Origin: Psammoneis japonica
Taxonomy: Eukaryota
NCBI GenBank assembly: GCA_008632985.1
Contig: QPGO01000047.1
Location: forward strand, 264,608 to 328,607
Length of the DNA: 64,000 nt
Direction: 5' to 3'
A program made the translations under genes and the position numbers. Below, one piece after another: positions 1 through 38,499 of this stretch; the first letter of the stretch is position 1; the number at the start of each line of letters is the position of its first letter. The notes under the pieces are model-generated. The model ran no database searches, had not been told where the DNA came from, and saw only the letters and a program-made list of their open reading frames with translations.

Positions 1-12
1 GTTCGCGGCGAT

Positions 13-1458
13 TTGCAGAAACACGGGATCGATTTTTTCGAGACCTGCGCGCCGGCAGTGCAATGGTCGTCCATGCGCCTTCTCCTCACCACGGTGCTCA
101 AGGAAGGTTGGACTGCACGTCAAGTGGACTGTGCCACAGCCTTCTGCCAAGCTGATGTCAAGGAGAAGGTCTGTGTGGAGCCTCCCAAGGGTTTCCAGCC
201 AAAATCGGGCGCCGATCTGGTGCCAAAATTGTTGAAAGGCCCACACGGCCTGTGCCAGTCTCCCAAGTGCTTCTGTGAAAAGCTGAGGGACGGATTGCTC
301 GAAAGAGAATGGATTCAATCCGCCATTGACCCTTGTCTTTATTTCAAAAAGGGTGTGTCATGTGTGGCACATGTTGATGATGCCGTGTTCGCCGGCGCAT
401 CGGCCCAAGCCTTGGAAGCAGAGATTGCCAAGTTGGGTGTTTCTGACGATGAGCAACGCCATGTCTTTGATCCACGTGATGAAGGCGAAGTCGGCAACTT
501 TCTAGGCATCAAGATTCAAAAGCTCGAAGACGGCCGATTCCTCCTGACCCAACCCGGCCTAATTGAGAAAGTTCTCCGCACCGCACAGATGACTGAGTGC
601 AACGGCGCACCCACTCCTGCCTTGCCTGCTCCTGCTGGCAGCGACACCGACGGGCCACCGTTCGATGAGCCTTATGACCACCGTTCCGTGGTCGGCATGC
701 TGATGCATCTAGCGTCCAACAGCCGCCCAGACATTGCTTGCGCGACCCATCAAGTCGCACGGTTCTCCTGCGCACCCAAGGCCTCCCACGCTGTGGCCAT
801 CAAGCGCATTCTTCATCACCTGAAGGATGCGGCCGANNNNNNNNNNNNNNNNNNNNNNNNNNNNNNNNNNNNNNNNNNNNNNNNNNNNNNNNNNNNNNNN
901 NNNNNNNNNNNNNNNNNNNNNNNNNNNNNNNNNNNNNNNNNNNNNNNNNNNNNNNNNNNNNNNNNNNNNNNNNNNNNNNNNNNNNNNNNNNNNNNNNNNN
1001 NNNNNNNNNNNNNNNNNNNNNNNNNNNNNNNNNNNNNNNNNNNNNNNNNNNNNNNNNNNNNNNNNNNNNNNNNNNNNNNNNNNNNNNNNNNNNNNNNNNN
1101 NNNNNNNNNNNNNNNNNNNNNNNNNNNNNNNNNNNNNNNNNNNNNNATTTCGACACATTCGAAGGCTTTCCGACACGCCAACGACGGAACTGAGGATTCT
1201 CCCATTGACTCCACTAACCTCCCAGCATCCGTTGTGCACGAAGACAATGCTGCCTGCCTCCAATTCGCCCGCACGCCAAAATTGTCCCCACGAACCAAGC
1301 ACATCGGCATTCCCTGCCATTGGTTTCGCACCAAAGTTGAGGCTTTGGAGATCAAAATTGAGCCTGTGAGCTCAGCTGCACAGCTTGCTGACCAGTTTGC
1401 TAAAGGATTGACTGTTGATCTATTCCGCACTGGTCGCAAAGCCCTCATGGGCTGGTGA
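13..1458 (+). mobile_element. Ty1/copia (CoDi-like) LTR retrotransposon pol fragment: RT and RNase H, degenerate, spans an assembly gap
   Basis: Copia RT motifs QVDxxTAF, (LY)GLxQSP, DPCLY, (Y)VDD, FLGIKI, RPDIA and RNase H motifs (Y)EDN, RTKHI, QLADxFxKGL. Most conserved Tyr residues are replaced by Cys or His. Confidence 0.93.
837..1146. other. Assembly gap (N run)
   Basis: Run of n characters. Confidence 1.
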
Positions 1459-1480
1459 CTGACAGTTCTCCTTCTCTTTT

Positions 1481-1730
1481 CAGTTGAGAGGGAGAGTCAC
1501 GAGTCAACAACCAAGTCTGATTCACGGATGACGCTTCCGGTCATGGATCTCTTCTTCCAGAAGAAATGTCCGTTGAGTCTTCTAGCAACAGTGATCGGAG
1601 TGACACACGACCGTCAGGTCATAATGTCATCTCCAATCCCTCGTGAGATCTTCTCACAATTCGCATCTTTGGCGCATCTTGTTGTCCCAAAACTGCTTCT
1701 TATCATCCTCTGTTGCATTGTACAACCTCA
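1481..1730 (+). mobile_element. Polypurine tract and probable 3' LTR of the copia element (right end uncertain)
   Basis: CAGTTGAGAGGGAGAGTCA shortly after the pol stop. The same 19-mer follows the related copia at 40032-40050 on the minus strand. Confidence 0.5.
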
Positions 1731-3436
1731 AGAGAGTCCTGAACTCTCCATCCTGCACAGTGTGTTGTTGCATCCCAAGTTCACCCATTCATTTTGAGTC
1801 GCGAATCGATCACTTCAAAGCAAGTCCCGAATTGGACGAAAGCCTCGAAAATCAATGGGTTCTCCTCCATCGCCAGGCTGGAAGGAAACATTGCGTGGGT
1901 CGCGACCCGCAAATCTCAAGGAGGTTTGTGTCCACTGAGACATGCACCAGCAATCACAAGCAGAAAGGATCGATGTTGCTTGGTTGCACCAGAGAAAGGC
2001 TGAGACAAGTGCCTTCTTGAAGAAGTGTGTTGCTGTCACCAACGACTGGGCGGATGGAAGTGGAAACATCCCATCTGGCCGCAACTGGGATGACATGCAA
2101 GCACAGGTCTTTTGAAAGTGGAAAGGAAGGTGATGGGAGCCTGCTCATCCCAGAAGAGTTCACTGCAAAAGATGATGACAAAAAATGCAGATGGCCAACT
2201 CTTCAATGAGTGGCTTGCTTTCTGCATGTTCAATTGATCGAGCATGTGGAGAAGAGCAACAGCTGGACATTCTGATGGAGTCTTGGGATGACAATGGTCG
2301 GATGCAAAGAGAGAATGCCAGCACCAAGCAAAACAGCAGGCCCACATGCAACAACCACAAATCGGCAATGATGTGGGGCACTTTCCCATGGCAAACAGCT
2401 TGTGCAAAGCAACCCAGCATGCTCAACAAATGAGCAACACATTGCGCATTTTTCACCTTGCCAGTTCAGCAGCAGCACTCTTGATGGCCCCAAGATGTCC
2501 CCACACATGAGCCAATGCTTTCTGGGCTGCTTGCTTTTTGGAGTTGCTGCTCAACAAAAGAAGCCCACCCAACACCAAGAGCTTTTTGGTGCTCTTCTTG
2601 GCCCCATTTTGTCATGTTGCACATCTGCCCCAATCTCCAGCTCAAATTGTTGTGGGGTGCATCATCTTGAGGTTCATCGCTGCACAGCACTCTTGCTCCA
2701 AACATTTCTTTCTTTAGAGCTTCTTGCCCTGTCTGCCCCCCCCCCCCTTTTCCAGCCAGCATGCAGCAATGCAGGGGAAGCTTTGAGAGAGAGGCACACA
2801 TGCGTGTGTGGTTTTTCTGGCTGGAAAAGTGTGCACGCCACGACCCTGTGTGCAGCACGGCCGCAGTGACTGAGCTGTTTTTTGATGTTGTTCCAACATG
2901 AAGAACAACTCCTTGTGTGATCAGAAAGTTGATGCAAAACTTTGACTGCTTGAGAAAGCATCAAACTGGCTCTTGGCTTTGTTTTTCTTGTGTTGCAAGC
3001 AGTGGCTTGTGTCGCTCTTGCTGCACGTGAGCAGCAGGCTGTCCTCAAAGACCACCACCAGGAATGTGACCAACAAAGCAGTCATCCCAACTGTCATGCA
3101 TGTCCACCAAGACATGATATGGGATTTATGGTAGTTTGATGCAAAGTGCTGTTGACTTTGATGATGATGTTGTGCATTGTGTGATTTTTGTTGGGCCAAA
3201 ACCTGCCGAAGGTTAGTCGGACGATTCAAAAGAGCACGTCAGCCCTCCGACGTCAGCGTTTCTGTTGACGTATCATCGCATCATCAATCATCATCGCTCA
3301 CTTTTTCTTCGCCGCCACCCAAAACAAAAAAGGCAAGAACGCGTTGAACCTGCGGTGTTTTTCTTTCTTCATTCAGAGGCTATACGTATTACTCTTATTC
3401 TCACTTCCATATTACAACAACAACAAAACTATAACG

Positions 3437-8809: not shown

Positions 8810-10820
8810 GAAACTGCTGCAGCCAACACTTTGCTGTCTGGGTCATGTGCTGAAACATGACCCAGTTGTCATGCATGCATGCATGTAGACAGAAAAGAGT
8901 GGGGGCTTGGATCAGGGGACAGCAAGGCGTGTGTGGAGTCTGGCAGGGTCCTGGAGCAATCGGCTGTGGCTGGTCAGCAAGAGACTTCATGGTTGTGGCA
9001 AGACCGCTGCTGAGACTCTCTTTTGTGGCCCTGCCACTCCTGGAGTGGCGTGGCGGAGTGGTGAGTGATGCCAAATTGGGTGGATGACACAGGGTGCGGA
9101 AAGGATGATTTGGAAGCTTGTCACAGGGCAAGGGGGGGGCTGGGATGGAGCATCTTTGCCAAACAGCAAACAGCAGGCGCAAAGCATCCAGCGGGGCGGC
9201 GGCCCCCCAAAAAAGTCAACGACAAATGGGGGGCAGTGCCTGTGTGATGTGCCTCAGCACAAGGATGGCAGCAGGGGCAGACAAGCAAGGAGCTGGGAGG
9301 GGCAGTGGCTCAGGGAGAGTGGCCCAATGGAGAGGTGTTGAAAAACCCATGGGAGAGTCAGTGGCGGGGGGGGGGCAGCAGGGGTGACTTGGGCGCGCCA
9401 ATGGCGGTGGGGCATTTGAGGGGTGAGTGCAGAATGGGGTTTGCAGGTTCACAGTGCATGGTCAAGGAGCTTGTGCAACACCATGCCAAAGGGCCAAGGG
9501 CAAATTACATGAAGGATGGCAAAAAGGCCATCATGGGAGGTGTCGGGTGGGGTTGTTTTTTGTGTCCGAGGGAGGAAAAGACATGGCCTCCTGTGGATCC
9601 ACTGTGATGTTGCATGAAAGGCAAGAGATGGAGTTCATGTAATTGGGCAACATCAGGGGGCAGAGTTTGCATGGCTGCATGAGCTGGAAGAGGTCTGGTG
9701 GCAGCTGTTTGTGCAGGAGTGAGTGGGTGAGGGAGTGCGCACCAGCGGAGAAACTTGCAAGGGGTGGTGATGGCAGACAAGATGGGAGAGCACCATGGCT
9801 GCATGCACGCACTGCCAGAGCTGCCAGAGCTGCAGGTGGAAGTGTGCGCAACAAAGCACTTGGGACTCCACCAGTGGAAATGGGGTTGCAGGAGAGGAGG
9901 AGGGCACAGGGTGGAAAAAAGCTGTTGCAGCTGGGGGAGGCAGCCAGCAGCCACCAAGGTGCTGTCCCAGCGGCTTGCACAAAAATTGCCATCATGATCA
10001 AATGAATGTTCCAACAACAATGATGACCACTTTCAAATGGAGCTGTGGCTGCCACACTGCAAGGCATGAAAATCACTTGAGTCTCATCAAAGAAGGCACA
10101 AAAAAAGCCAAGCTGCGCAGTCCAGCCCATCTTCATGTGCCAAGTCAGGTGCACTGCCAGCTGTCAAGCATGCAAACATTGTTGTTGGAGGGTGCTTGTT
10201 TTTTTTTTAAACACAAGCAACAAAGAAATCCAGGACATGCCTTGGAGGGTTTGTCTTTTTTTGGGGCGTCAGCAACAAAAAGTTCCAGGGGGTGTCACAT
10301 TTTTTGCTGATCATGATCATGAATGGCGCTTGTCTTTTGGAAGCAACACCAAAGGCAATGCTTCTGTTGTGTGAGAAAAAAGCTCACATGGCTGTGTTCA
10401 CCAGAACTGGCTTTTTTGGGTGGCAAAGTTGCTTCCTCCTGAGAGAGTCATGAAAGTGCAAACCAAGAAGGCGCCTGTGACGACAAGCACCAGAAGACAT
10501 GGCAGCAGCAGGCGCAATGAAATGACCATTGGCTCTGACATGCTTCAATGTCCATCCAACATCCAAGTGTTGGCCTTGTTTGAATCTGTCTCTCGATTTT
10601 GGGTGAATGCAGCAAAAATCCTGCAATCGGAAGAGACTGTGCCAATCACATCCAGAGAGGGTGGTGCTCTGCTGGCTGCACCCCACACACCCACAACAGC
10701 AACAAATGGAGTGTCTGAATCAGTCATGTTGTTTGGGACGTGGTCAGCTTGCTGCTGAAGATTCTTTTTGGGACGCCATTGAGTTGCCTTGCTGGTGATG
10801 TGAGAAGTCGTTGGCATTTT
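8810..10820. other. TpA-depleted hypermutated domain, original content not identifiable
   Basis: Only about four TA dinucleotides seen by eye in about 2 kb. TG/CA rich, with dense spurious Cys/His-rich ORFs. Confidence 0.85.
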
Positions 10821-10821
10821 G

Positions 10822-10973
10822 CGATCTCAGATCGATGACATGACCCCGCGCAAAGATTGTGAGACGATCGCGCGATGTGTCGTGATCACGACTCTCGATC
10901 TCAGATCGATGACATGACCCCGCGTACTGCAACGATTCTGAGACGATCGCGCGATGTGTCGTGGTCACGACTC
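10822..10973. repeat. Tandem duplication of about 75 bp upstream of the SDR gene
   Basis: cgatctcagatcgatgacatgaccccgcg...gagacgatcgcgcgatgtgtcgtg at 10822 and 10896. The second copy has an extra TACTG. Confidence 0.9.
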
Positions 10974-11145: not shown

Positions 11146-11925
11146 ATGAAGCGCTTTGAAGGAAAAGTAATATTGGTCACTGGCGCCGCTTCAGGAATTG
11201 GTCTCGCTACGGCTCAAGAGTTTGCCCGGGAAGGAGGCAAAGTCATTGCCACCGACATTGACCAAGAGACACTCGAAAAAGTCCACAAGGATATACCTGG
11301 GATTGAAACAGCAGTCCAAGATGCCACAGACCCGCAAGTTTGGAAGTCAACAGTGAACGAAATTGTAGCAACGCATGGACGTTTGGATGTATTATTCAAC
11401 AACGCCGGAGGAGCTGGTACTTTTGCTTACATCGACGAAACCAGTCCGGAGCAACTTCGTCGCATCAATTCTCTTAATATTGACAGTGTCTTTTTTGGTA
11501 TGCAGGCTGCTATTGACGTCATGAAAAAGCAAGAAACGGGCGGCTCCATCATCAACAACTCGAGTGTGTTGGCAATAGTGGGCGTGCCGATTCTCGCAGC
11601 CTATTGTGGAACAAAGGGCGCCGTTCGTTCACTGACAAAAGCGACTGCTGTTGATCTTGCTCGTCGGGGTATTCCTATTCGTGTCAATTCCATTCATCCA
11701 GGTTTTGTGAATACTGCATTTGTCGGCCGTGGATTGGAGTCTTCGGCACAAGAGAAAGGACCCGAGGTGCAGGAAGCGGCAGCTGCGTTTATAGAGCAAA
11801 TACCCGCGGGCCGTGTGGGAGAGCCCCTTGAGATTGCTCGACCTGTCCTTTTTCTTGCAAGCGACGATGCTTCGTACATTACTGGATCAGAACTTGTGGT
11901 TGACGGCGGTTTGGTTGCAGCGTAA
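11146..11925 (+). CDS. Classical short-chain dehydrogenase/reductase (3alpha,20beta-HSD / cyclopentanol dehydrogenase-like)
   Basis: TGAASGIG, NNAG, catalytic YCGTK, IRVNSIHPG, YITGSELVVDGG. Intact, intronless, 259 aa. Confidence 0.95.
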   Translation: MKRFEGKVILVTGAASGIGLATAQEFAREGGKVIATDIDQETLEKVHKDIPGIETAVQDATDPQVWKSTVNEIVATHGRLDVLFNNAGGAGTFAYIDETSPEQLRRINSLNIDSVFFGMQAAIDVMKKQETGGSIINNSSVLAIVGVPILAAYCGTKGAVRSLTKATAVDLARRGIPIRVNSIHPGFVNTAFVGRGLESSAQEKGPEVQEAAAAFIEQIPAGRVGEPLEIARPVLFLASDDASYITGSELVVDGGLVAA

Positions 11926-16142: not shown

Positions 16143-16790
16143 TTGATCTCAAAAAAATGTAGCGCGTGGGAAAATGGGAAAAGCAACCTCATCAAAAGCA
16201 TAGAGGCAGAAGGAATGATGGAGTGTTGCAATTCGATTTCTTTTTCCTTGCCATGGCCACTCTCTCTTCTCATGCAACGTGCAATTTCCAACTCTCCAGC
16301 TTCAATCATTGCCGAGTGCATGGTCCACATTTGACATGGATTGAACAGCCACATTCAGTGTGACAGCACTTTGCAAGTGTGCCAATGCTCATTTTGTGCA
16401 TCACACAATATTTTGAAAAGGCTGCTTTATGACCATGGATGTTCCAAGTCATCTCTGGCGGTGTCAAACATCACAGTTTGCAGTCAAACATGCCCATGAC
16501 TCTGGCTCACATGAAGGATTGTCTGCATCACAAAATTGTTCAAATGTGCAGAGCCACATTGATGGCTGCATCATCCAGTGTGTCTCTGGAAGTGATGCTT
16601 TTCAAGTTCTTTTGCCCGGTAGAAACAAGGTCATTCACATGCTGTTGAGATCCATGCACATGAGCCAGAGGTGGAGTTCCATCGTTTCTGTGCCAAGGTG
16701 CAAAGCCACAATGAACAGATTGTTCCTCAGTGTCGTGACTGCAGTCAAAAGACACAAGAACTGATGATGTGCAATGTGACATGCAAACAA
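16143..16790 (+). pseudogene. Degenerate MYND zinc-finger gene copy A (paralog of 32880-33600)
   Basis: Colinear with 32880-33510. Ends in VPQCRDCSQKTQELMMC and has stops and frameshifts. Confidence 0.65.
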
Positions 16791-17239
16791 TGGAGAGAGT
16801 TGAATGACACACCATTGCACTGTGCATTGCCGTCACCTCCAAAATTCTGCCCAACAGACGTCATCCAATGGCACCAGCACTCTCATCCAGGCCACAGCAA
16901 TGCACAAACAGCAAAATTGCAGCCATTGACAAAATTGGTTGACAACACACAGGTTTGAGTCCCTGCAAAAGATGATTGCAAAATGAAACACAAAAGCACA
17001 AACAGCTGCAATTGTGGAGATCTGGAAAGTTTGTGGACACACCAGGGCAGAAGAAGTGGCTGTTTCGCGGTCAAAGAATTTTCTCATTTTCCCATGGTGT
17101 GGTGTGGTGGGGGGGATCACAGATGAAAAATTGTTGCCATGCGCAACATCTGGTGTCCCATCACAGCATGAAAAAATTTGCTGTGAGAAAGGCGCTCTTG
17201 ATCACTGGAGTGTGCACTCTGATGAAACTGCGCCAGCAC

Positions 17240-18075
17240 CAAAAGCTTGCAGATGGCCTTCTTGGTCATCTTCAGTGGGTGCTGGACAATGCTTTGAGAG
17301 CCAAGGTTGAGTGCCAGTGCAAGGCTCTTCTTGCTCAGTTGTGGCCCACTTCACTTTGTCTCTTCAAGGATGATGTGTGACACAAAATTGAAAAAGTCAG
17401 GTTGATGGAATGAGCGCGCACACAGCACTGGACCAGCCTGTGCCAGCAAAAGCTGGCAGAGGGCCTTGGTTGTCTCTGGTGGGTGCCAGACAAAACTTTG
17501 ACAACCAAGGTTGAGCATTGCAGGGCCCATTTTTTGCAGCTGTGGTCCCACTTTTCACTTCATCCCCCCACTGGGAGGGGACATGACATTCCAAAAGTCA
17601 GAGCAGAGTGTGCCAAAAATGCAACCAACACTTGCATCTTGGCAGAAGCTGGCAGATGGCCTTGGTTGTCTTTGGCGGGTGCTGGGCAACACTTCAAAAG
17701 TCAAGGTCAAGTGCTGCAAGGCCCATCCAGAGCCGTTGTGGCCCTGCCATTGTTGATCCCCACCAGAGCGAGACTGCACCACAAAATTGTGAAAGTTGGG
17801 GTGGAGCAAGTGCAGCAGCCCAGCAGCCCAGCAGCATGGGACCAACCAGTGCAAAAGCAGCAGGGAGAGCACCCTGGTTGCCTCTGGCAGGTGCCAGATG
17901 GGCGACACTTTAACAACCAAAGTTGGGCCCTGAGACATGAAGCTTCAAAAGTCAGAGTGGAGTGAGCCCTGGGTGGGACCAGCCAATGCTAGCAAGAGCT
18001 GACAGATGGCCTTGGTTGCTTCTGATGTGGGTGCCAGGTGGCACTTTGACAGCCATGGTTGAGTGCTGCAAAGCT
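17240..18075 (+). repeat. About five diverged copies of a 70-80 bp core (spacing about 135-215 bp), degenerate internal-repeat coding sequence
   Basis: agctggcagatggccttggttgtct...gggtgcc...caaggttgagtgctgca at about 17244, 17451, 17647, 17871 and 17997. Translates as KLADGLG(C)LWxV. Confidence 0.7.
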
Positions 18076-18683
18076 TTTTTGTGCGATTGCACCACCGCTT
18101 CACTTTGTTGAGAAGAATGAAGAAGCACGTGCAACCTGCTCTGCATGGTGCAGGAGCTCATTTTCTTGCAAATGAGTGGACTGCAGGCAAAGCAGAAGCA
18201 GATTGCAGTGAGTGGGTTTCAAGCTGTTTGGCAAGAAAATGGCATGATGTCAGTTGTTGAGTTTTTCGGTGGCACTTGCTTGCGCATGCAGTGCTGAAGC
18301 GTCTTGATTCGTGCTTCCTGTCTCGATGATTCGTGCTTCGTGCGTCTGAACCGTGCCTCGACCGCACACATCCGAACCATGCATCATTTTACCATCATTC
18401 TGGAAATCTTTGCTCCGACTTGTCTCACAATTTCCTCACAACAGAAATCAAAGCTCGTTAATTTGTTGAAAATGCAGCAAAAACGTTTGGAGTTCAGCAC
18501 ACTCTCGACCTCGACCCTGAGCTTCAGGCTAGCGTGCACACGTTGAATTACAACTTGTCTAACCTTTCGGATCGCGTTGACACCGGCAGGGCTGAAGTTC
18601 AATACCGTGAGATTGCCTTTCATGAAAGCATCAGGTCGGCCATCAGTCGAGACCACTATAACGTAGCTACAGAATATTTTTGC

Positions 18684-19802
18684 AAACTATAAGTGGAGTC
18701 ATTGTCCTCTTGCCTTCCCTGCCTCGAGTTATCGCTTCCGTCTCAAAGCGTCGTATAATGTCTCAGTTTTATGATCCCTTACAAATATAGGGCCCTACTT
18801 CGTCATACCGGTAACTTTTTACTTGAATCTTTCAAGACGAGTGCGCGTTTCCACAACTGTCATTTCTATTACTTCTAGGAACACAGCAACACCCTAGAGA
18901 CGAAGAATATGCCAGAGATGAACGCCGTTTGACAATTCGAGTCCGCGTTGGATCCGCCTCCAATTATTGGTTCAGGAACAGGAACCGTACCAGTTGTGGG
19001 TGGTGCAACTGATGGTATAATAGAATGCTGATGAGAGGATGGAGTATTCGAAGGAAAGTCAGATGGGACAATGCAAGGAGCAAGACTTGCGCTTGGGACG
19101 CTAGAAGGATGATCCGACGGTTGAAGCAATGGTACTTCGCTCAAGCTTGGTTGAAATACTCGCTAGGAGCTCTTGATGGAGCCGGGCTGACACTTGGTTG
19201 TTGCGATGATAATTGTGATGACAATAGAGATGGTGCGGGACTGGTGGTGGGAGAACCAGATGGAGGACTTGTAATTGTAGGGTAGTTTGTTGGAGCCACA
19301 GAAGGTGACAAGGAAGGACGTTCACTTATCGAAGGTGCTGGACTCACACTCGGAAATATTGATGGCGATGCACTAACCGAAGGCGCAATACTTACAGACG
19401 GAGCCGGAGAAAAGTCAATGAGACACCCTGCAAGATTTTCAGAAAGTCCCCTTTACAAACTCGCAGTGTTCTCCCTCGTACATTTCCATGCAGTCGCACC
19501 CCAGGTTTGGAGGATCGCGACATGTTCCAAAGTTTGTGCAAAATGAGTTAGGGTCAGAGACATTGCAAAATGATGTTGGGAGCCCAGCTACAACCTTTGG
19601 CGAAGCTTCGCAGTCACAACAGTACTGATCTTTTTGGGCGCCGCTCCTAACACAGGTTCCGCCGTTCAAGCACACGTTGCCGTCTGGACAAAGCGCAAGT
19701 TCGCATAATTGTCCTGACGTACCCGCAGGACACCGACAAAACTCTTCGCCAGTTGCAATCACGCTGCAGATTCCTCCATTCAAACATTCGAGACGGCATG
19801 AT
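18684..19802 (-). pseudogene. Partial duplicate of the 3' half and downstream flank of the EGF protein gene (34081-35249)
   Basis: Near-identical sequence with a 15-bp deletion (FCDQI lost), a +1 shift giving a stop at 19439, and a 7-bp deletion near 19154. Confidence 0.92.
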
Positions 19803-21815: not shown

Positions 21816-24800
21816 CATGATTTGTGGAGCTCACAACTTGCTGCCGCGAAAAATGATGACACTCACCTCGAACGCAAGCAACTGATGACACTTTCTTGCC
21901 ATTTTGCATTTTTCTTACTCATTGTTGAAAGCTTTAGGTGCTTGTCGCTTTGTTGTGGTTCTGCGCTGCATTTTTAGCCGTCAATGTCCAATCTGTCGTC
22001 TCGACTTCTCACGGTGAAAATCGGGATGGATGACATGAATCCAGGAGGAGGTTGGGGTCGGAAAATTCGCCAGCCGGTGGTTTTACAATCTCTTGACGGT
22101 GGGTGCCACTTTTGTGATGTGAAACTCTGCTTTTTTTGTTGAGACGTGTGCTGAAAATGTTCTTTGCTCATCATCCAAAGCTGACGCAGAACCAGTCTTT
22201 CTCGCACGTTTGCTGCCAAGAATGCCGCGGGATTTCACACAGCAATTTGACCAACGATTTGTTCTGGGACACAAAGTGAAAGAGATGCCGAGTGTTGGAG
22301 ATGCGGTTGCTTTTCTTGTTCTTGATCTTGATGCTTTTTGATGCACTCATGACACGCACCTCGGCACCGGGTCATGGAGCTTCTAGATGGGGTCCGTGTT
22401 CGGGATGCTCCCTCAATTCGGCATTCATTTGTGTTGCCGTGACATCTTTGTCCACACCCCGGAGCTTCAATTCCGTCAACCAAGCATCAGCACTGACCCA
22501 ATGCCCAACAAGAGACAACGTTTTCCATGGCTTTGTTGCATCGTCGAACACTGCGTGGATTGTTCTTTGTTTTGGTGCCATTTCATCGAATCGGCTGCAC
22601 CCAATGCACAAAGCAGACCAACTGGGTGTGGGTGGTTCGCAAACACTGATTGGGAGCAGCGAATGTTGTCACCAGCAAAAGTTGTTTGCATCGGCATGCC
22701 ATTGTCGCACCCATTGTCATTTTTTCCCGCGGTGCACCGCGGTGTCCAGATGGAAGCGTCGACGAGTCCTGAGCAGGCGGGACTCAAAACTTCATGCAGC
22801 CACGCGCTGGCCTCAGTCCTCATTGCTCAATGAGAGATGCTCATGCCAGTGCAATCTTGCGGATCTTGCCATGTTGGTTGGGTCTTGAAGGCGGTGCTTG
22901 TCATCAACCCGGAACTCCTCATTCAGAATCTTGGCTCAACTCAAGAAGCAGTCACATGCCAGTGGGCGGTTTCACTGCTTTTTTTGTTTCCTCGGTTGCG
23001 TTTTGTGCATCAAACAGAATGCCAAAACCAGAGACAAAGTTGCCCAGAAGACTCCAACACATGTCCCGGTGATGCCAAGACAAGAGTTGTTGAGTGCACC
23101 ATGCAGTGATGAGTTGTCGTTGTCCTTCTAAAAGTGAGGCACTTGCGCTGCCTCTGCTGGATTTTTGCAATTGGAGCTTGCCGTCTGACCACATTTTCGT
23201 CATGCCCCACACACTCCACTCAAACGACAATGTGCTCCTTCTCACCAAGGAATTCGAAGTCACTCTTTTTCCATGTCTTTGGCTCCAGCTTGGTGTCAAT
23301 CCATTCGGCCATTTCTTCCGTCACACTTGTGCGCAATGCCGTCATCGCTTCCACGTTGAGATGATGAACCTGCCAACCCGAGACTGCACCACTTCAAACT
23401 CATGATCGTCCTCTTTTGATGTGACAGTGGAGCATTTTGACAGCAACGCTGACACCAATGGAGTCACCTCCTCCAGCTTGTCCTTGTCTGCTTCAGGTTG
23501 CCAATCGCAAATGTCAGAAAGGGGCGCTGGCTCCAGTTGGTGAAAGACCTCCTCTGCTGCAATCGAGTCCGGCAGTGATTGCGGCATTTCAAACAGGTGC
23601 AAATGGGAATCCATGGCTGCAATGGCCAACACTTTTTGCCATGTCTTGCTGGGCTTTCGTTGCTCCACAACTTTCATGGAGAAAATCAATTCGCTCATCA
23701 GCGGCAACTTGAGCACTTCAAGGTCCTTTGCCTCTGGTGGAATGAATGTGCGTCAAGATCGATTGAGGATGGAGGATTTGTGCTGCACTTCCTTCATTTG
23801 CACTTGCTTTGAATGCTTTTGAATCATTTCATGAACATGCCAATTGACCTCCTGGTCCATTTGGGGGAATGCACAGACTCGAAACCTGACAAAAGGTCCA
23901 CCTGTTGAGGCAAACGCTCCAAGAGCAAATCCAGCAGTTTGCTTTGACAATCCACTTCATTGGTCATGACTGAATTGGCAAGATGCAGCAATTCTGGTGA
24001 TGCCTTGTTCCACAACTTGGATTGCAACTTTGCCATGACACAACAAAGCATCTCTGCCAACCACAAATCACGCACATCTCGTTCTGCCACTGGGCTTTTT
24101 GGAGATGGCTTCGACAGGGATGACAGCACCATGCTGAGAGAAGCATGGGGATGGCAAGGGGACACAAGAGGTGTCAATTTTCTTTCTGGAGTGCAAGCGG
24201 GTGAAGCAAAAACAACGCCTTGCTGTGAACTCGTTTCATGAGAAGACCAGTGACAAAGGCAAAAAAGACTTGTGAGCCATCAATGCATCCCTTGGACTTG
24301 CCCTGCGCACGGGCGACCTTCGACTCCACCCCCTTGAGCTCTGCAATGACACCTTCACCCTTCGCGTCCATTTTTCACAAAAGAGACTTGAGCTCCTGCT
24401 GGTGGTTTGTCAACATGCTTGCCTGCCTTGCCGAGGCAGATTCTTTCTTTGAACTTTCCTCAAATCTCCAGGAAACAACAGACTGAGCATCAATGAGAGA
24501 TGTGAGCATGCCTCACATCTTTCTTCTGGTGCATCCAAACTGTTTCACCATGCTCCTTCATTCTGCACTGCAGCCGCCGTGTGGTCCTTGTGACTGCGCT
24601 CTTCCAACAGACGAGTCTGCCTCCCAGCAGCCGCGCGCTTGGTTTGCATGAGCCACGCCGAGAGCCAATCGATGGGCATGCGGGGTTTCTTGCAAACCAG
24701 AGTTCATGGCATCAACACACAACAGTCATTTTGTTGATGCTGCCTGGAGCTTCTCTGAAAACTCTTTGCGGCATTTCTCCCGAAGTCTTTTGGGTGCACG

Positions 24801-24997
24801 TGGTTTTTGGTCTTCAGTGTTTCCCTCAAAAGGAGGATGAGAAGGAGCACCGCCATGCATGTTGGACAACCAGATCTGATGCTGCTCACTGCATGAGCCA
24901 CAGCCCACCTGCATGAAGGGACCATGCAGCTGAACAATCCAATGCAGTGTGCATGCAGACAAAAGGTTGTTTTTGTCACGCCCTTTGTGACATTTGA

Positions 24998-25487
24998 GGT
25001 GGCACGGGTGCAAAAGTGGGCCAGATTCTACGTGCGCAGAGCTTAGCATGTTTTCTACACAAATCGCCAAAGTCGGCTCGCCAACTTGAACCCTCTCCCG
25101 GACGATGGAAAGTTCGACATTTCAAATGACAAAGTGTTTCGACTGCTTGGTTGCACTCTCCTCGACTTGTTTGGGGAGAGAAGTTACAAGTTTTCACAGG
25201 TTTCTGAGGATGCATGACGAATCTAATCAGAAAGGTGCCGAAATCGCGACGTTCGACTTTTAAAGAGCCGTGCAAAATGAGAAACCCATGGAAACTTGTA
25301 ACTTCTCTTCACAAACAAGTCGAGGGGAGTGCAATCAAGCAGTCCAAACACTTTGTCATTTGAAATGTCCAAGTTTCCATCGTCCTGGAGAGGGTTCAAG
25401 TTGGCGAGCCGACTTTGGCGATTTGTGTAGAAAACATGCTAAGCTCTACGCACGTAGAATCTGGCCCACTTTTGTACCCGTGCCACC
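24998..25487. mobile_element. Non-autonomous foldback element with about 208-bp TIRs and TTGA 4-bp duplication (Kolobok-like if originally TTAA)
   Basis: 24998-25205 is the reverse complement of 25281-25487. Termini are GGTGGCAC...GTGCCACC with TTGA on both sides. An empty-site paralog lies at about 25783-25888. Confidence 0.85.
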
Positions 25488-28400
25488 TTGAAGGCTGCAA
25501 CACGTTGCCGTGATGCATTGACTCTTGTTGGCAGCTGTGTGTTGCACTCCTCCCCATGTGTCACGCGTCCATGCGGCTCTTTACCAACGTGTGCTGACAC
25601 TGCACGGTTTTGGCAGAACAGTGTGGGTGCGTGCAAAGGAACATGCAGAACTGCACAGAGTTTTGCGCGTTCGACAGTGATCAACGTTGCTGCAGACAAC
25701 TCCCACTCAGGGTTTCGAACCCCTGGCCTCCTGCCCAATGATTGCGAGATGAACCACTCCGCTGTGAATTCACAACGCAGCACGCATGCAGACAAAAGGT
25801 CATTTTTGTCACGCCCTTTGTGACACCCAAAGGCTGCAACACGTCGCGCCGTGATGCATTGGCTCTCATTGGCAGCTGTGTGTTGCACCAACTGAATTTT
25901 TTTTTTTGCACGTTCGTGCACCACCCCACATGTTCCTTGTTGCACAAGAAAAAAAGACTTTGACCACAGCAAGCAAACAGTTTGCGGCAGTGTCAATGTT
26001 GACAATCAAGCGGCAATCACATCTGAAGAGTCTTTTTGTTCTTGAACCCTGTTGGAAGCATGTGGCACAGCAATTGCCGCTTGAATTTTTCCTTCAGTTG
26101 CTTTTTTCCCCATCCACTGCTTCTCTTTCATTTTTGCTGTTGTTGCCTCCATCCCAATCGAAGGTTGCGAATGCCTCTGTGACCAAAGCATGCAAAAGTT
26201 TCGCGCGTTCATTGAACCATTCAACAAAATTGGTGGTGTGGATGGAGTTGCCTGTGGACATTCATTCTGGTTGGTCAAACACCGCCATGCTTCGTGCTTT
26301 TGTGTGGCCAGAACATGCTGCCGACAGCGGCGATTGCTCAGATGCGACTTCGTCAATGTCCCAATTTGAGTTGCAAGCACACATGGAATGCATTGATCAA
26401 TCTCATGGGAAGGACACCAGTTGGTGATTGCCGCTCAAACTGTCAATTGTTCCACTTTTGCTGACGCTTTTCTTGCTCTCCATTAAATTTTTGGCGGTGC
26501 GTCGACCGGCAATGCCGTTTCTGATGTTCAAGTTGGAGTTCATTGGACACAATCACATCTGTTCACTCTTGTGTGCATCATGTGAGATGACAGGGTGAGG
26601 TGTCTGGATTCTTGGGGTGGTTCTGTGTGAGCATGAACGAACACAGATCTGCCTGGAAGTGGCTTGCCAGCCCCCCAACTTGACAGCCAAATCAATTTGG
26701 ACTGCAAAAAGATTCATCACATGTTGTTGTCAAATCAATGGTGTCTCATCATGAGTCCTCAATCAAACAATTGTGGGTGATTGGAACAAAAAGCAAAGTT
26801 TGGCAAGCACTTGAGATGCCGGAAGCTGTTGGGCCAGTTGTTGTGACGGACCGGGCTTGTCTGACTGAAGCAGCAGACAAAAGTCTCCAAGTCATGCAGC
26901 ACCTCTTAGAGATCTGTTGTTGATGAAACATGCATCTAAGCTGGTCATCTGGGGCTCCTGAGCTGGTTTGTCTTAGAAGGTGGTGCCAATTGCTGGCAGG
27001 GAGCGGCTCCTCAGACATCAGATTGCGCAACAAAATTTTTGTCTGTGCTTTGCTGCTCTTCTGATTCTCATTCTTTCCAAAACAACAGGCAAGAAAACTT
27101 CATCCTGACCACAAAGATGTTGGAAACAATTGATTTTGTGAGCACAACAAAAGAAAATGTCACAAAACTTGCCCTCAAGTGCTCACCTGAGTCCCTCTTG
27201 ACACATGTTGCAGCATCCATCTCATGATTGGAAGCATGAAAAGTGGTGCTCTTGTCCAAATTTTGCCACGCTGCTTTTCAAAACCATTTGGTGGCTTCAT
27301 CTTGACCCAAATCCAACAAAGCAGGGAGATGCAGGCAGCTGAAACTCTGTTGCATGGCAACTTGGACTGGCAACAAGTGGGATTTTGCACGGGTCCTGCA
27401 CGCACAACATGCGTTTGCAAGTGGAAAACAAGAAAGAATGTGCGACAGCACTGCAATGTCCGATGAGGACAAACTTGCTTGTTGCTGCCAGAATCATTGG
27501 ACACTCATCAATGGCATGCTTGTTGTTGACAAGATGAAGGCAACAAGGCATCAAAGCATGTGGCAGCAACAAGGATCATCGGGGGTGGCATGGACAAGTT
27601 TTCAATGGTGGTGACGGACCAAAACCACGAAGAATGAAAGTGTGGAGTGAGATGTGCAGCAAAGAAATGGAAAAACAATGAGAACCCAGTTGGGCCCCCG
27701 TGTTGACTCATGGGCATCTTCTGCTTCCTTTTCTCTTGGTCGCACAGATCAAGAGACACTTGAAAAAGAGAAAAGGCTTCTCATCAGAAATGTCGTTGAT
27801 GTGCATGGTGCTCCGGGAGGCAACTTGAGCTTGCACCTCATTTTCTTCTGCCAACGCATGATCATTTTATTTGCAACCAATCTATTTGGGGGGCAATCGA
27901 GTGCCTGTGTGATTCTTCTTTTTGCCGCCGATCTCTTTGCACGACAATCGAGCACCTGGAGCCATTTGAAAAAGGGAAATTTTGTGATTTGCTGACATCC
28001 TTCTTGCAAGAGGCAAGATTCGGGGCAGAAGAATGCCATTCTAGCCCTGTCCCCAGCATTCAAAATGCACTGTGTGGCTTTCATTGTGCACGTCTTGAAA
28101 ATGCAAGCACTGACATTGCAGTCTAGATGGCGCGGCTGGAGGAGCCCTGTGGCAAGTTTGTTGTGTTGTGAGAATGGCTCTCTCGGCCTTGGACAAGGAA
28201 GAATCAGTGGAAAATGTTTTATGACAAATGTGGTTGCATCGTTTGCTTGTCACTTTGGTGAGAAGAGACTGTTGCAGCGCATGTTCTTTTGGTTGGATGT
28301 TGATGCGACCGCCTTTGCAGCACTGCCAAACGGCTTCCTTCGGGTCAAGACGAATTTTGACAAGGAAGTCACTCAACTTGTTGAGGTTGACGCATGAGGT

Positions 28401-29659
28401 TGTCCTGAGACATCTCCAGATGGACTGTGTGCACACTCTCTGATGAGACATTGCCAGCAGAAAACAACTGCGAGCGCAGCTGGCATTCCATGCCAGGGAG
28501 GCGATTGCAGCTGCCAAATGATTCAAGAACATTGCCTGAAAGCATCCGATGCCACAGCAGCTGCTGACACTGCTTGTCCACTGCAATCTTTGTCAGTTTT
28601 TTTTGTCACTAGAGATCCCATTGAAAAAATCTTTTACAACACAAAAGACAGACAAGAGCTGTTTTAGCCAAGTGCGATCTTGAAGTGGAAGGAGCTAGAA
28701 ACAAAAGACAAATCGTGTCGCAGGCCCCATCCCCGAGCACACAGTGCCGTGGACCTCCTTCTACATGGAAATCTGTTTGCAAGGGACCACCAGTGGTCTA
28801 CTTCCCAACAGAACAGCTCGGTAAAGATCGATGCAGCATTCCACGAGATGGAAGATGCCAGGTTTACAAACTACAGATCCGAAAGACATCAAGACGAAAT
28901 AACATTCATGCTCATAAAAATGAAATGTTTGAAATCTACGTCTGATGTGCGTCCGCAAAGATCTGATGACTAACCAACGCGCGACCACACAACAACACAA
29001 TCAAAAATCAAAGAACGAGAAACTTCACCATGACGCTCGCGATCGATTTGCCGCTCGTTTTTGGAAGATTCGGCATGCCAGTACCGGTTCCGACATTTTT
29101 GAAAATATCTGATCCCACAAGAGGATAAGTTGTCGAAACCTGCCAGGCACCGAGAGCACACGAGTCGTGGAAGACCGAGGACTGAGGCTCCGTGGATTTT
29201 ACGTGCTTCTGGTACACGAACAATCCGATGCTGAATTTCCGCTCGCTCTCGATTCGCTCATAATTCTGACAATCAACTCAAACAACACGGCAGTAATGGA
29301 GGAGTTGATTGTGTTTCTCTTTTGACCATGGCGCTCTTTGCAGTGGCCATGGGCGTTCTGCTTGCTGCCGGCTTTGTCGTCGCAGAGTAAGGTACGTGGG
29401 TTCTTGTCGTGATCTTGCATTCCTTTTTCTTTTGTATTTCATCCACTCAACTCGCTCTTGCCTTCTTGTACGTACACAGAGACAGAATTATCATTCACCG
29501 TGGTTGTGGGCAAGAAGCGGATACGTTGAGGTGCTCGTGTCTAGGTTGCGGCACGGCGGTCTGGGATATTCAAGGCGAGGCGATGTACTGATTGTGGTTT
29601 GGGATTGGATTCACCAAGAAGGACGTTTTGAAAAGTACAGCAGCAATGCGAGGCTACCC

Positions 29660-30270: not shown

Positions 30271-31436
30271 GCCCCCACCTGTTCCACCAACAAGTCCTTC
30301 CGAAGAGGTGTTTGTTTAACATCCGGTGACCATGTCAGACCATATGAAGGCCAGTACTCGGAATATTGATGACATAGTCGGTTCAAGAACTTTGCAATCT
30401 ATCAGAGAAACGCGCTTTCTCTGCCGTTTGCGCCATCTCGGTTCGCTTCTACAGCTCAAGAATTCAGGCTCGCAGTATTGTAAGCCGAGGCCGTTTCTGA
30501 CGTCACGTTGAAACAGAGAGGCAACATTGACGAAAGAGAATTCATTGACCACACTCTATTTCAGGCTCGCATTGCTATCATTAAGTCGTGTCGCTTCGGA
30601 AGTCAAGCTTGTTGTTGAAACATTGACGGAAGAGAATAGAGCATTCATTGGGAGCAATAATTTTACAAGGCTCCCATGAAAAAATACGAATCATACCTCT
30701 CTAGAGAGACAATAAAAACACGTCTCAAATAAAAGGAATAGAAAACAGAGTTCCTAAAACGTCCGCTTGCATTCTTTACAATTTACAATACCTTAGTACT
30801 ACTTCTAGCTCGCTCATGGCGCGGTCGTCAGTCTTTTAAAGCAAGACGGACATTTATGTCGTAGCATATTCTGGCTGTATCCTTTACGTTGCGAAACCGC
30901 ACGTGCACGTTGTGGACTAGTCTAGATTTTTCTCTCAATTGTGGAGGTGGTGCGGGTGGCTTTTGGAAGCCCCCACAAATTCTTAGGCTGCATCAAGTTT
31001 GGAGAGTGATGACATCATGTGACATCATTTTCCACTCAGTGTTGCAGCACAAAATGCGCACATGACGTCAACATGCCAGGCCTGCAGCTCCAGTGACCCC
31101 CAACTCATGCAGTGATGCCACCAATGCCTCGTCAGCAGCACACAATGCAAAGCAAACAGCCCACACTTTTCTCACTCTTGCCAAATTGTGATCTGCTTTT
31201 CTGCTTCCTTTGGACTTCAATCTTGTCAAACCAATCTTGCCAAGTCAATCTTGTCAAATTGATCTTGTCAAATCATCACTCCTCATCCACCCGATTCATC
31301 AATCTTGTTCCTCCAGATCAACAGCAGCATTCTCAATTTGTGGCTTGCTCTGATTTCTGTGGTCATCTGCCATGCGACCCTTCAATCATGACCGGGACCC
31401 AATCACTTGAGCTCTGCTTGAGTCATGGTCCGCGTC

Positions 31437-32620
31437 ACCCTCCTTGATGGGCTCTGGCTCCACCATCATGAGTTCGTCACACAGGCTTTGAGCCAATCTC
31501 TTGTGAGTCTTGATTTTTGCATTCTTGGTGTTGACATCTGCCAGTTTCTTCTCCATGCTGTGCTGACATGACATGGTTCAATTAATCCACGCTGGACCAA
31601 CTCATCCAAATGTCCATTGCGAACGTGAGTGTGTTTCATCCGCTGTCCCAATTGGTTGTCAACAGCCAGAAACAGTGATGTGGCATTGTCCCCACACACA
31701 CAACTTGGCATCTTCAACATGTTCATGCCTGCCAGCTCCTCCACCAATGAGCGTTTCTGGAACTGCACACTCTGCGCGCATGCCATGCCTGCCATGGTCT
31801 TGCTTTCACAGCTGCTCAGCACCACAGAGGTCTGCTTCTTGACTGCCAATCAGTTGACAATGTGTCACTGCTCAGTGTGGAAAGGTCACTTGAAATGCTC
31901 TTTTTGTCATTCTTGTCTGTCCCTCACTCAGGGCAGAACATCCCTGTGCTCCTCAACTCCAAAGGTGACCTCAACTTCAATGGCTGACAGTGAAATTTCA
32001 GATGTCCCACAACTCTGTCCAGTGTGTGCCAGCAATCCTCAGCTGGATTTGTCAAATGCATTGTCAGCACTCCAATCAAATTTGCACAATCAGGTGAGAC
32101 CTTCAACATCACATGTGAGCTCTTTCCAACAAAGGCTTGACATCCGTTCTGCTTGACTGGCTCATGGTCTTTGTCTGCCTTCATCAATGTCTTGCCCGGC
32201 TCTCTTGGCATCTTGTAATTTTTTTTAGTGTCTTGTTCTTGAAGTGTTGTCTGCACCCCACAATTGTGTTTGTCGCATGCTTGTGCATGCTGCACTCAAA
32301 GTGCCGACCATGTTTGTCTTTCTTCAACTCACAATCAACTCCCAAATGAGTGTCGATTTGTCCAACATCCAGGATCTGAGCTCTCTTTGCCAAACAGTTC
32401 TTGGCTTCCTTGACAACTTCCCGGCTTCCCACATGTGAAAGCATCATCACCCCTTGTTGTCATCATGACAATGCAGCACACAAGGGTCAGTTTTGCTTTG
32501 CTTGAGCTTGACGCCACCCTTTTCAGTCATGGTTCTGACAAACATGTTGACTCAAAAAAAATTTGCAGACAAATCAGTCTTCAGTCTCTTGAGCATGGAA
32601 CCCTTGGCTTTCTCACAATT
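31437..32620 (-). mobile_element. Degenerate Ty1/copia RT-RNase H fragment with PPT and LTR start
   Basis: QSKTDPCVL, HLGVDCE, VVGHLK, KKQTSVVLSSCES, CGDN, RMKHTHVR. On the minus strand CAAGGAGGG is followed by TG at 31437. Confidence 0.85.
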
Positions 32621-32879
32621 GCACCACATCGGTGTGCTGCCTGTGCAGGGCAGGTGGGACTGTTTTCACATTTTTCTGTGCCTTTCCATTTGGCAGTGGC
32701 ATTCCATGTTGTCATGTGTGCCACTGCCATGCACCATGTGAGACCAGCACTGCATGTGTTGTTCACTCCATGTGGACAGCCGATGGTTGGTCATGGCATC
32801 TTTTGGTGGTGGTGGTGCAAGGATGAAACATTTCAATTTTGGAGTGAGAACCCCTGGCCAAAAAAAAATTGACGGACTG

Positions 32880-33600
32880 TTGATCTTAAAAATGCAGTGT
32901 GCGGGAAAATGGGAAAGTGACCTCATCGAAAGCACAGAGGCAGAGACAACAATGGAGTGGTGCAACTGGATTTCTTTTTCCTTGCCATGGTCACTCTCTT
33001 TTCTCATGCAACGTGCCATTTCCAACTCTCCAGCTTCAATCATTGCTGAGTGCATGGCCCAAAAGGTGACATGGATTGAACACCCAAAACAGCTGGGCAT
33101 CCAGGATGAAATCGCTTTGCAAGTGTGCCAATGCTGGTTTGTGCATCATGCAACATTTTGAAAAGGTGGCTTTATGACCATGGACCTGGTGGTGTCGAAT
33201 GTCATTGTTTGCGGTGGAATGCCCACGACTCTAGCCTGCATGAAAAAATGCCTGCATCACAAAATCACTCAAATGCACAGATCCGCGTTGATGGCTGCAT
33301 TGTCCAATGTTTCTCTGGTGGTGATGCTTTTGGAGTTCTTGCTGCTGGTGGAAACGAGGTCATTCGCATGCTGCCGAGATCCATGCATGTGAACCAGAGG
33401 TGCAGCTCCATCGTTTCTGTGCCAAGGCATGAAACCGCAATGAACAAGATTGTTCCTCAGTGTCATGACTGCGGTCGAAAGTCTCAAGAACTGATGATGT
33501 ATGAGCGATGTGACGTGGCTTGGCATTGCAGCAATGGATGCCTTGCGAGGGATTGGAACAATGACAAAGCTTCGTGTAATGCATCAAAGTGGAAGCCTCT
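32880..33600 (+). pseudogene. Degenerate MYND zinc-finger gene copy B
   Basis: CHDCGRKSQELMMYERCDVAWHCSNGCLARDWNNDKASC follows the MYND pattern (WYCS->WHCS). Upstream stops and frameshifts. Confidence 0.75.
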
Positions 33601-34299
33601 CAACGGCACTGCCAAGCAGGATTGGGCTTTATTGTGCTTTGGTAGAAACGGCACATGTTGCGTTGAAAAATCCTAGCATGAATGTGAATTTGTGTCACTT
33701 GGTTGGATAGAGTGACGCTTCTAGCTCTATCATAGAGATTTCGGCAGAAGTAAAGCTTGGAGCCGTCAGAAAGGAACGGCCCATGGTGTATACTCCCTTA
33801 TGATCACACTCTGGTTTGAGAATCACTTAGAAGACCATATGCAAAGAACGATGTTGGCATCTGTCTTGGAGATAGAAATACGATACAACACACCCACCAT
33901 ACTATTTTAGCCTGAAGTTCCTATTTGCACGAGTAGAACGTAGAGTAAGATGCCGTCTCGACACTATTCGTACAGAGTCGAATCTTTCTACGAAGCAGGA
34001 AAATACGCCTTTCCTCAGCTTGCCGTTGTCCCTGATTTTGACTTGAGTTACAGCTTCCTGCAAGATGTGTAGTTAATAGCAAACTAAGTGGAGTCATTAT
34101 CTCCTTTCCTTTCCTTCCCTGTCTCGAGTTCTCTCTTCCGTCTCATAGCGTCGTTCCCTGTCTCCAGTTCTCTCTTCCGTCTCAAAGCGTCGTATAATGT
34201 CTCAGTTTTATGATCCCTTACACATAGAATTCGTCATAACTTTTTACTTGAATCTTTCAAGACGAGTGCGCCTTTCCACAACTGTCATTTCTATTACTC

Positions 34300-38309: not shown

Positions 38310-38499
38310 GCCGTTGTCGAGTTACTACACCATGAAGAGCACAACAACAACAATAAGGTTGACCAAGAGCAGTGCGGGCAGCTACGCAGCGTCAATAACA
38401 TCGTGTGATGTGGGCGATGCGGGATGCGGGGCGGGGGGAAAAAAGCGAGCGACGCACGGGCGATGTCGTGTGTCGATAACCTGTTGGCCACTTGTACAA

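Follow-up and report, generated by a model that had tools for sequence, protein, structure and literature searches.

The stretch analysed here, 64,000 nucleotides of contig QPGO01000047.1 from Psammoneis japonica (the window), opens inside a Ty1/copia retrotransposon. Frame 1 is open from the first base of the window to a TGA codon at 1456–1458, and residues 2–208 of its translation match the Pfam profile RVT_2 (PF07727; E = 1.4e-26) over profile positions 41–243 of 244. On this match, window 1–1458 is the 3′ part of a copia pol gene. The TpA (TA) dinucleotides of the frame have almost all given way to CpA (CA) and TpG (TG). This erasure is not specific to the copia element: eight blocks of the window are marked by it.

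A database search identified 210 longer relatives of the copia frame. The best 57 of these are metagenome polyproteins with 50–62% identity to the query, and polyproteins at this level carry gag-pre-integrase and RVT_2 domains. The copia polyprotein of the diatom Cylindrotheca closterium, a named relative, is 41% identical. The readable frame comprises 381 codons, bases 837–1146 being an unreadable run of N. The 5′ side of the element, meaning everything 5′ of the reverse transcriptase (RT) together with the 5′ long terminal repeat (LTR), lies outside the window. The features of the element and of the DNA adjoining it are as follows (tyrosine, Tyr; cysteine, Cys; histidine, His; untranslated region, UTR).

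1–836, plus strand: RT part of copia pol, cut by the window start; RVT_2 match; nine Tyr>Cys/His codons
46–48, 130–132, 172–174, 244–246, 370–372 (YVDD>HVDD), 679–681, 706–708, 739–741 and 817–819: the Tyr>Cys/His codons of the RT part
837–1146: run of 310 N, in frame, with the same frame open on both sides; the consensus of the relatives has about 110 residues here, and the run probably hides the RNase H core of pol
1147–1458, plus strand: C-terminal end of pol and TGA stop; tblastn matches to relatives at 54–60% identity; Tyr>Cys at 1315–1317 (PYHFF>PCHWF)
1459–2050, plus strand: probable 3′ UTR and 3′ LTR; purine run GAGAGGGAGAG at 1486–1496; CpG-rich, almost TA-free
2051–3118: older TA-free, CpG-poor DNA adjoining the element; TA-free gaps at 1721–2715 and 2715–3118

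The placement of the 3′ LTR is inferred from contig depth and CpG content. There are 5–8 CpG per 150 bases up to ~2046 and 0–2 thereafter, and the summed depth of the run X1 contigs is 4014 over 1147–1813 against ~53–110 beyond, which assigns 1147–1813 to a multi-copy family. Given the CpG drop at ~2046 and the fall in depth after 1813, the first block is therefore composite: a young multi-copy copia element with a probable LTR adjoins older TA-free DNA. Over 2001–3000, TA is at 0.02 of its expected frequency and CG at 0.21. No coding remnant was recognised in 2051–3118, and this segment has no Pfam match.

The most conspicuous feature of the copia frame is the replacement of its conserved tyrosines. 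The N-terminal piece (residues 1–278) was aligned with 34 relatives of 41–62% amino-acid identity. Nine of the ten columns with a Tyr majority contain Cys or His in the query, and at any of these nine no more than one of the 34 relatives has the residue of the query; the tenth column has Phe, in common with 13 relatives. A second set was assembled from the DNA of 80 metagenome relatives, 47 of which were translated and those of short coverage left out. At eight Tyr columns compared with these 47 sequences, the query has no Tyr, three Cys and five His, against a sum of two Cys and no His in the relatives. Three of the 47 are frameshifted, making their later columns unreliable, and one of the two search patterns used for this set demanded Tyr at one tested column, which biases that column only. 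At columns conserved to at least 80%, the query keeps Tyr at 0 of 8 and other residues at 134 of 157 (Fisher p = 6.9e-7).

In total, ten conserved Tyr sites are replaced, five by Cys and five by His. The original prediction had also listed ten, of which nine hold (VDC, VCVE, PHGL, AHVDD, DHRS, MHLA, IACA, HHLK and PCHWF). The column of the last, in the C-terminal piece, is Tyr in 89 of 106 relatives. The remaining entry, VHEDN, is a natural variant: the same 106 relatives have F 53, Y 32, H 18 and W 3 at this column, with His in 17 of the 49 closest. A site absent from the earlier list is found at residue 16 (FETY>FETC). Active relatives with the same Cys and His residues, named beforehand as evidence against the idea, were looked for, and the relatives are without these residues. 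The catalytic YxDD motif reads HVDD in the query (bases 370–381), with Tyr at that column in 33 of 34 relatives. With this change the enzyme is ruined, and the copia copy is dead.

A functional role for the Cys and His residues was also considered and rejected, the relatives keeping Tyr at these columns. Only two Tyr codons are still found in the copia frame (window 340 and 673), both of them TAT after T, and the relatives have Phe (97%) and Trp (97%) at these positions. These two tyrosines are new or lineage-specific and do not descend from conserved ones. At residue 257 (window 769–771) the query has Cys where His is conserved in 94% of the relatives (CAY>TGC, a CA to TG flip that takes two changes). 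Such a change would be expected if an ordinary C>T substitution made a TA that the mutator then turned into TG.

Specificity for TA was assessed at the DNA level in a codon alignment with 37 relatives, counting a step wherever at least half of them have TA and testing each relative alike. The query keeps none of the nine majority-TA steps (five are CA, three TG and one TT), and relatives tested alike keep 281 of 333. This agrees with the predicted concentration of changes at TA. Measured against the majority base, T>C occurs 25 times in the query (control mean 7.2) and A>G 15 times (control mean 10.2); the ten remaining substitution classes are at or below the control mean, or within 1 above it. 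Companion changes of the kind that had been anticipated are present at conserved columns, all in a TA context: Leu>Pro at three (CTA>CCA), Thr>Ala at four (T/ACN>T/GCN, across the codon boundary) and Val>Ala at one (GTA>GCA). Together with the Tyr sites, changes of the TA type make up 16 of the 31 differences at conserved columns. Because the relatives conserve Tyr, the direction is fixed as TA to CA or TG. The RT region retains five TA (observed/expected 0.13), where the loci of 50 relatives have a median of 37 (0.60), and 1147–1458 retains three (0.17).

Both products occur in near-equal numbers in every block, and window 1–836 contains 67 CA and 74 TG. Together with the even division of the Tyr sites, this bears out the earlier statement that both strands were hit. 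It also bears on the possibility that an ADAR- or ADAT-like enzyme favouring a 5′ U edited the RNA of the retrotransposon from A to I and that reverse transcription then fixed these edits. The element does replicate through RNA, and RNA adenosine deaminases favour A>G after T. An RNA edit fixed in this way, however, yields sense-strand A>G only and is confined to the element, and half of the polarised changes observed here are sense-strand T>C. The TA-free state also continues for ~1 kb beyond the CpG-rich element, in older DNA, and seven other blocks are marked, with no recognisable retroelement among their 99 open reading frames (ORFs). We therefore consider RNA editing very improbable, as the original prediction had argued from the two-strand pattern, and conclude that the process acts on the DNA duplex. 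To detect strand-coordinated tracts, the succession of CA and TG along nine block segments was put to runs tests, and clustering was not found (z from −1.15 to +0.72).

The same substitutions account for the open frame. The process makes no stop from a sense codon, because T>C makes no T and A>G only turns TAA into TGA. Simulated full conversion of TA, randomly to CA or TG, in 35 intact relatives (20 times each, 700 trials) produced no stops and ~26 residue changes, and a conversion in the manner of repeat-induced point mutation (RIP) produced a mean of 12.5 stops. The absence of stops noted in the original prediction thus holds across the 381 readable codons, although it is not remarkable in itself, since A>G and T>C cannot create stops. 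The open frame reflects little ordinary decay so far and is no evidence of selection. As TA-free DNA has neither TAA nor TAG, the blocks are full of long meaningless ORFs.

CpG in the copia element is at the level of its relatives and is not depleted. The CG observed/expected ratio is 0.86 in 1–836 and 0.76 in 1147–1458, in agreement with the earlier remark that many CpG are left. With TpA nearly gone, CpG undiminished and no stop in 381 codons, TpA has been lost faster than ordinary decay proceeds. The two losses can be told apart, as had been proposed from the element by itself, and the older blocks of the window have lost both dinucleotides.

Beyond the block that contains the copia element, the TA-free blocks of the window are as follows.

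8886–10925: TA-free block between two host genes; 5 TA, observed/expected 0.04; CG 0.36, CA 1.88, TG 1.66
16201–18390: TA-free block; has a repeat at 79% identity in common with block 30984–33500
22084–25029: TA-free block; contains a TA-free gap of 1900 bases, the longest in the window
25582–28610: TA-free block, from composition and TA gaps
30984–33500: TA-free block, from composition and TA gaps
38495–42989: TA-free, strongly CpG-poor block; decayed copia RT remnant at 40384–40595, minus strand
58410–60195: TA-free block, from composition and TA gaps

The eight blocks occupy 21.8 kb of the 64 kb and hold 58 of the 1897 TAs of the window. Their TA observed/expected ratios are 0.02–0.08, with CA and TG at 1.5–1.9 and CpG at 0.24–0.60. 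The mean gap between TAs in genic DNA is 22.5 bases and the maximum 215, compared with the 1900-base gap in the blocks. The block edges are sharp, with TA density falling from normal to nil within ~100–200 bases, and the flanking genes have their start codons a few hundred bases away. The only trinucleotides lost in the blocks are those containing TA or CG, the only ones clearly gained are those containing CA or TG, and all others change by at most 7.2 per kb.

When the 99 stop-to-stop ORFs in blocks beyond 1458 (90 amino acids or longer) were scanned against Pfam, none matched at an E value of 0.01, and Rfam and tRNA scans of the whole window returned nothing. A recognisable transposon remnant is found in only two of the eight blocks. 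The copia RT remnant at 40384–40595 has 44–51% identity over ~45 residues and stops in all frames. It lies in the block that is poorest in CpG and was struck by the same process at an earlier time. The repeat found in two blocks (32880–33517 and 16143–16783) is 79% identical, with 75 transitions, 27 transversions and 11 aligned CA/TG pairs. These 11 pairs cannot be assigned to a source dinucleotide, as ancestral TA and ancestral CG yield the same pairs.

Contigs of run X1 reproduce the blocks at a depth of ~53, with other letters at 1 in 1247 bases, 7 in 5178 and 17 in 1159. At 1212 and 1853 the window has CA, and X1 contigs of higher depth, which represent further members of the family, have TA there (among 40 listed of 336 differences). 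The X1 contigs thus support both the sequence and the direction of change. They also speak to an artefact of sequencing or assembly, in which a modified base in silent DNA would be misread so that TA is seen as CA or TG. The blocks do coincide with DNA that is probably methylated, and the reads come from the same sample only. Such a miscall would nevertheless have to choose CA or TG consistently at each site and yet spare 58 TAs, in contigs of single-copy depth, and the same footprint appears in Illumina mutation-accumulation data of another alga, Bigelowiella natans, according to a preprint (bioRxiv 10.64898/2026.01.13.699255). An artefact is, in our assessment, hardly tenable.

The genes of the window are spared. 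Seven host ORFs retain 185 TAs at codon positions 2–3 and 3/1 in 2461 codons (7.5 per 100), compared with six in the 381 codons of copia (1.6 per 100). Two copies of an EGF-domain gene (34154–35248 and 18715–19802; 1.1 kb, 91.6% identical and 15 kb apart) have 44 TAs each, and their 56 differences comprise 27 transitions and 29 transversions, with TA against CA or TG in only four. An inverted repeat of 492 bases (24997–25488), whose arms are 86.6% identical with mixed differences, contains 12 TAs at a normal CpG ratio of 0.89 amid 6.5 kb of otherwise TA-free DNA. Either it was inserted later or the mutator leaves it alone.

These observations bear on whether any targeting is required. A genome-wide bias from TpA to CpA or TpG could erode all unselected DNA while selection keeps TA in genes, and the blocks are indeed non-genic and the TA-normal parts gene-rich. 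The TAs kept by the host ORFs are, however, at mostly synonymous positions. The paralogous gene copies have moved 8% apart without TA erosion, and the arms of the inverted repeat, 13% apart, keep their TAs within a TA-free block. The promoter-side DNA beside the blocks is TA-normal up to the sharp edges. Because the host ORFs and EGF-domain copies keep TA, a genome-wide bias masked by selection is ruled out for practical purposes and retains next to no probability; for the same reason duplication alone is not the trigger.

The haem-lyase gene in this neighbourhood has its best named relatives in Pseudo-nitzschia, Bolidomonas, Ditylum, Attheya, Leptocylindrus and Odontella (diatoms and a bolidophyte), at 59–67% identity. 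On these similarities the host DNA is the nuclear genome of a diatom-like ochrophyte.

A closely similar process has been described by Mettrop et al. (bioRxiv 10.64898/2026.01.13.699255, April 2026). In B. natans, two viral inserts, integrated DNA of nucleocytoplasmic large DNA viruses (NCLDV) and a virophage, mutate at a rate ~1000-fold above that of the remaining genome, which is normal, and do so in only some lines. The new mutations seen in the inserts of mutation-accumulation lines numbered 231, of which 230 were A>G or T>C and fell without exception on TpA. Clusters poor in TpA and rich in CpA and TpG were also reported, as were TpA-poor coding sequences enriched in reverse transcriptase and DDE domains, and the authors propose an ADAT2-type adenine deaminase (same preprint).

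With a probability of roughly 80%, we consider that the window records a TpA>TpG/CpA hypermutation, with the signature seen in B. natans, that works at the level of DNA, is targeted locally and affects silent or foreign sequence in a diatom-like host. Several observations stand behind this reading: the changes are restricted to TpA, run in one direction and fall symmetrically on the two strands; they are confined to blocks with sharp edges, and host genes and duplicated genes are spared. In the sequence of events that we propose, the copia element would become part of a silent, repeat-rich block, and a targeted process would then act on the DNA duplex, converting TpA to TpG or CpA on either strand. 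As both Tyr codons are TAY, conserved Tyr would turn into Cys (TGY) or His (CAY), and CTA, GTA and T/ACN steps would give Leu>Pro, Val>Ala and Thr>Ala. No stops would be made, so that the frame would stay open though the enzyme is ruined. Targeting may depend on silent chromatin or foreignness rather than on duplication, and the slower loss of CpG in the older blocks may be ordinary decay of 5-methylcytosine.

The chemistry we favour is deamination of the adenine after T to hypoxanthine, which would be read as G, with an ADAT2/TadA-type enzyme as the candidate. The natural target of ADAT2/TadA enzymes is A34 after U33 in tRNA. Each of the changes can equally be described as T>C affecting the thymine of TpA. 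In that case, the thymine would be modified, for example when an enzyme of the TET/JBP type hydroxylates it to 5-hydroxymethyluracil, and mispairing or faulty repair of the modified base would give C; the footprint would be the same because TpA is its own complement. Some protists replace thymine with 5-hydroxymethyluracil preferentially in TpA. We know of no such enzyme or base in diatoms, and the U33–A34 target of ADAT2/TadA offers a ready preference for T-A. The authors of the B. natans study also favour adenine deamination (bioRxiv 10.64898/2026.01.13.699255). A thymine target thus seems to us unlikely, with adenine deamination the preferred reading.

Several points weigh against hypermutation of this kind or limit what it can claim. 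Fifteen of the 31 differences at conserved columns are of mixed kinds and not of the TA type; these are probably mostly lineage-specific. The G+C content of the query is 0.56, compared with 0.38–0.54 in the relatives, and there are many third-position T>C changes outside TA (GAT>GAC, CAT>CAC). We put these down to the codon usage or higher G+C of the lineage, although they could hide a weaker second context. The nearest relative is only 62% identical, so that ancestral states come from a consensus and not from a sister copy, and, with the 5′ LTR outside the window, this element does not itself show that the changes came later than integration. Runs X1 and X2 derive from a single sample, which was probably also used for the assembly, and they give no independent proof against a base-calling artefact; the read differences, moreover, rest on the 40 listed of 336. 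Finally, the self-complementarity of TpA means that A and T of the T:A pair are not separable by sequence as the chemical target.

The TAs that survive in the blocks suggest a preference in flanking context. Of the 58, 33 are in YTAR (CTAA/TTAG 16, CTAG 10, TTAA 7), compared with 295 of 1827 genic TAs (odds ratio 6.9, p = 6e-12). Only three are in RTAY (ATAC/GTAT 0, ATAT 1, GTAC 2), compared with 564 of 1827 (p = 3e-6). Gains of TGC/GCA in the blocks amount to 30.5 per kb, against a loss of TAC/GTA of 25.6 per kb, the gain of TG being concentrated before C. The RT region has 45 TGC in the query and 27.5 in the relatives. These product counts suggest that adenine followed by C is preferred. A hand count of 17 polarised copia sites follows such a TAC>TGC rule by only 11 to 6, in a count biased to non-synonymous changes, and we keep the rule as a lead only. 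Wording on flanking context was not found in the text of the B. natans preprint (bioRxiv 10.64898/2026.01.13.699255).

The likeness to B. natans extends to the change (A:T>G:C only), its site (TpA only) and the products, TpG or CpA according to strand; in both hosts it is confined to foreign or mobile DNA beside normal genes and leaves low TpA with high CpA and TpG. The two cases also differ. B. natans is a chlorarachniophyte (Rhizaria), its mutation rate was determined in mutation-accumulation lines, and its viral region still has a Rho(TpA) of 0.45 (bioRxiv 10.64898/2026.01.13.699255). The evidence here is comparative, the loss is near saturation (observed/expected 0.02–0.13) over a third of the window, and the old blocks are CpG-depleted too. 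The words ‘diatom’, ‘stramenopile’, ‘Phaeodactylum’ and ‘Thalassiosira’ are absent from the text of that preprint (bioRxiv 10.64898/2026.01.13.699255). No description of TpA hypermutation in a diatom was found in a literature search that left subscription journals mostly outside its reach. Within that scope, targeted mutation of this kind was previously described only once, in an unrelated alga, and the window adds a second, distant host.

The nearest classical analogue is RIP, running in the opposite direction. In Neurospora and other Pezizomycotina, RIP likewise introduces dinucleotide-specific transitions into both strands of DNA and kills transposons, producing blocks with a skewed dinucleotide composition while leaving the genes beside them untouched. 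Its transitions are C:G>T:A, however; it converts CpA to TpA and so raises TpA, whereas TpA is converted to CpA or TpG here, reaching 0.02–0.13 for TpA and 1.5–1.9 for CpA and TpG. RIP makes stops, as its imitation above illustrates, and the process described here cannot. RIP is also triggered by duplication, unlike the case of the EGF-domain pair, although rules of length and identity may differ outside fungi. RID-like DNMT4 genes are found in many diatoms, with function unknown (PMC9998398).

Other systems share single aspects of the footprint. A-to-I editing of the ADAR or ADAT2/3 type, including hyper-editing of repeat RNA, also changes A to G after U or T, but in RNA and on one strand of a retroelement; the window is changed on both strands and in apparently non-retro DNA. 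APOBEC3 deaminates cytosine in minus-strand cDNA, leaving one-strand G>A changes and stops through TGG>TAG/TGA. It resembles the present process as a host-driven, context-specific deamination that inactivates reverse-transcribing elements, and differs in its cytosine target, single strand and stops. CpG decay of methylated transposons affects the same blocks and gives the same products, CpA and TpG, from another substrate dinucleotide and more slowly here. Diatom transposons are CpG-methylated, and Phaeodactylum has DNMT5a (PMC9998398), which fits the slower loss of CpG in the older blocks.

Two further observations concern a neighbouring gene. An intron-less short-chain dehydrogenase gene (11146–11925) has only bacterial named relatives (54–62%) and one unnamed relative at 80%, making it a candidate gene of bacterial origin by sequence similarity. 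A run X2 contig at depth 1759 skips 87 bases with GT..AG ends at 12321/12409, within a transcript that reaches from the dehydrogenase gene to ~12902; run X2 is probably RNA and the skipped bases an intron. No X2 contigs lie on the blocks in the stretch covered, which has no bearing on expression.

Some metagenome relatives of the copia element are TA-poor as well. Three of them (L017:399–1205, L026:833–1636 and L030:2–3202) are 41–44% identical to the query, with TA observed/expected ratios of 0.12–0.18 and CpG of 0.1. They keep Tyr at 6–7 of 8 conserved columns, and 7 of 7, 8 of 9 and 8 of 10 of their remaining TAs, respectively, are in Tyr codons. The L030 sequence has an open frame of 1067 codons in which Tyr codons account for 11 of the 14 TAs, and its 1148 non-ORF bases hold 19 TAs. 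This lineage could have purged dispensable TpA under such a mutator, or could have an extreme codon usage.

We offer tentatively, as a possibility that we hold short of even odds, that diatoms and chlorarachniophytes, and perhaps the stramenopiles, alveolates and Rhizaria (SAR) in general, have in common an ADAT2/TadA-type deaminase that is guided by chromatin and acts on adenine in DNA. It would erase TpA from silenced foreign DNA, as a genome defence that is the mirror image of RIP, some lineages of elements would purge TpA in response, and the YTAR/RTAY bias would be the motif of the enzyme. If this is true, elements would be disabled without a stop ever being made, since Tyr codons, two of the stop codons, TATA boxes and AATAAA all need TpA.

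The beginning of the window is a dead copia caught after the erasure of TpA and before ordinary decay. Long open frames in TA-free DNA are consequently no evidence of genes, and repeat finders and protein-homology searches will miss such transposons, as the ORFs of the other blocks illustrate. The TpA and CpG ratios together provide a two-clock ranking of the age of silenced blocks. The finding points to the existence in nature of an enzyme that converts A:T to G:C in DNA, and such an enzyme is of interest for base editing. The diatom-like host would be the second eukaryotic lineage in which a mutator alters the TpA of silent mobile DNA, and this would make the process a candidate for a widespread genome defence instead of a peculiarity of a single alga.

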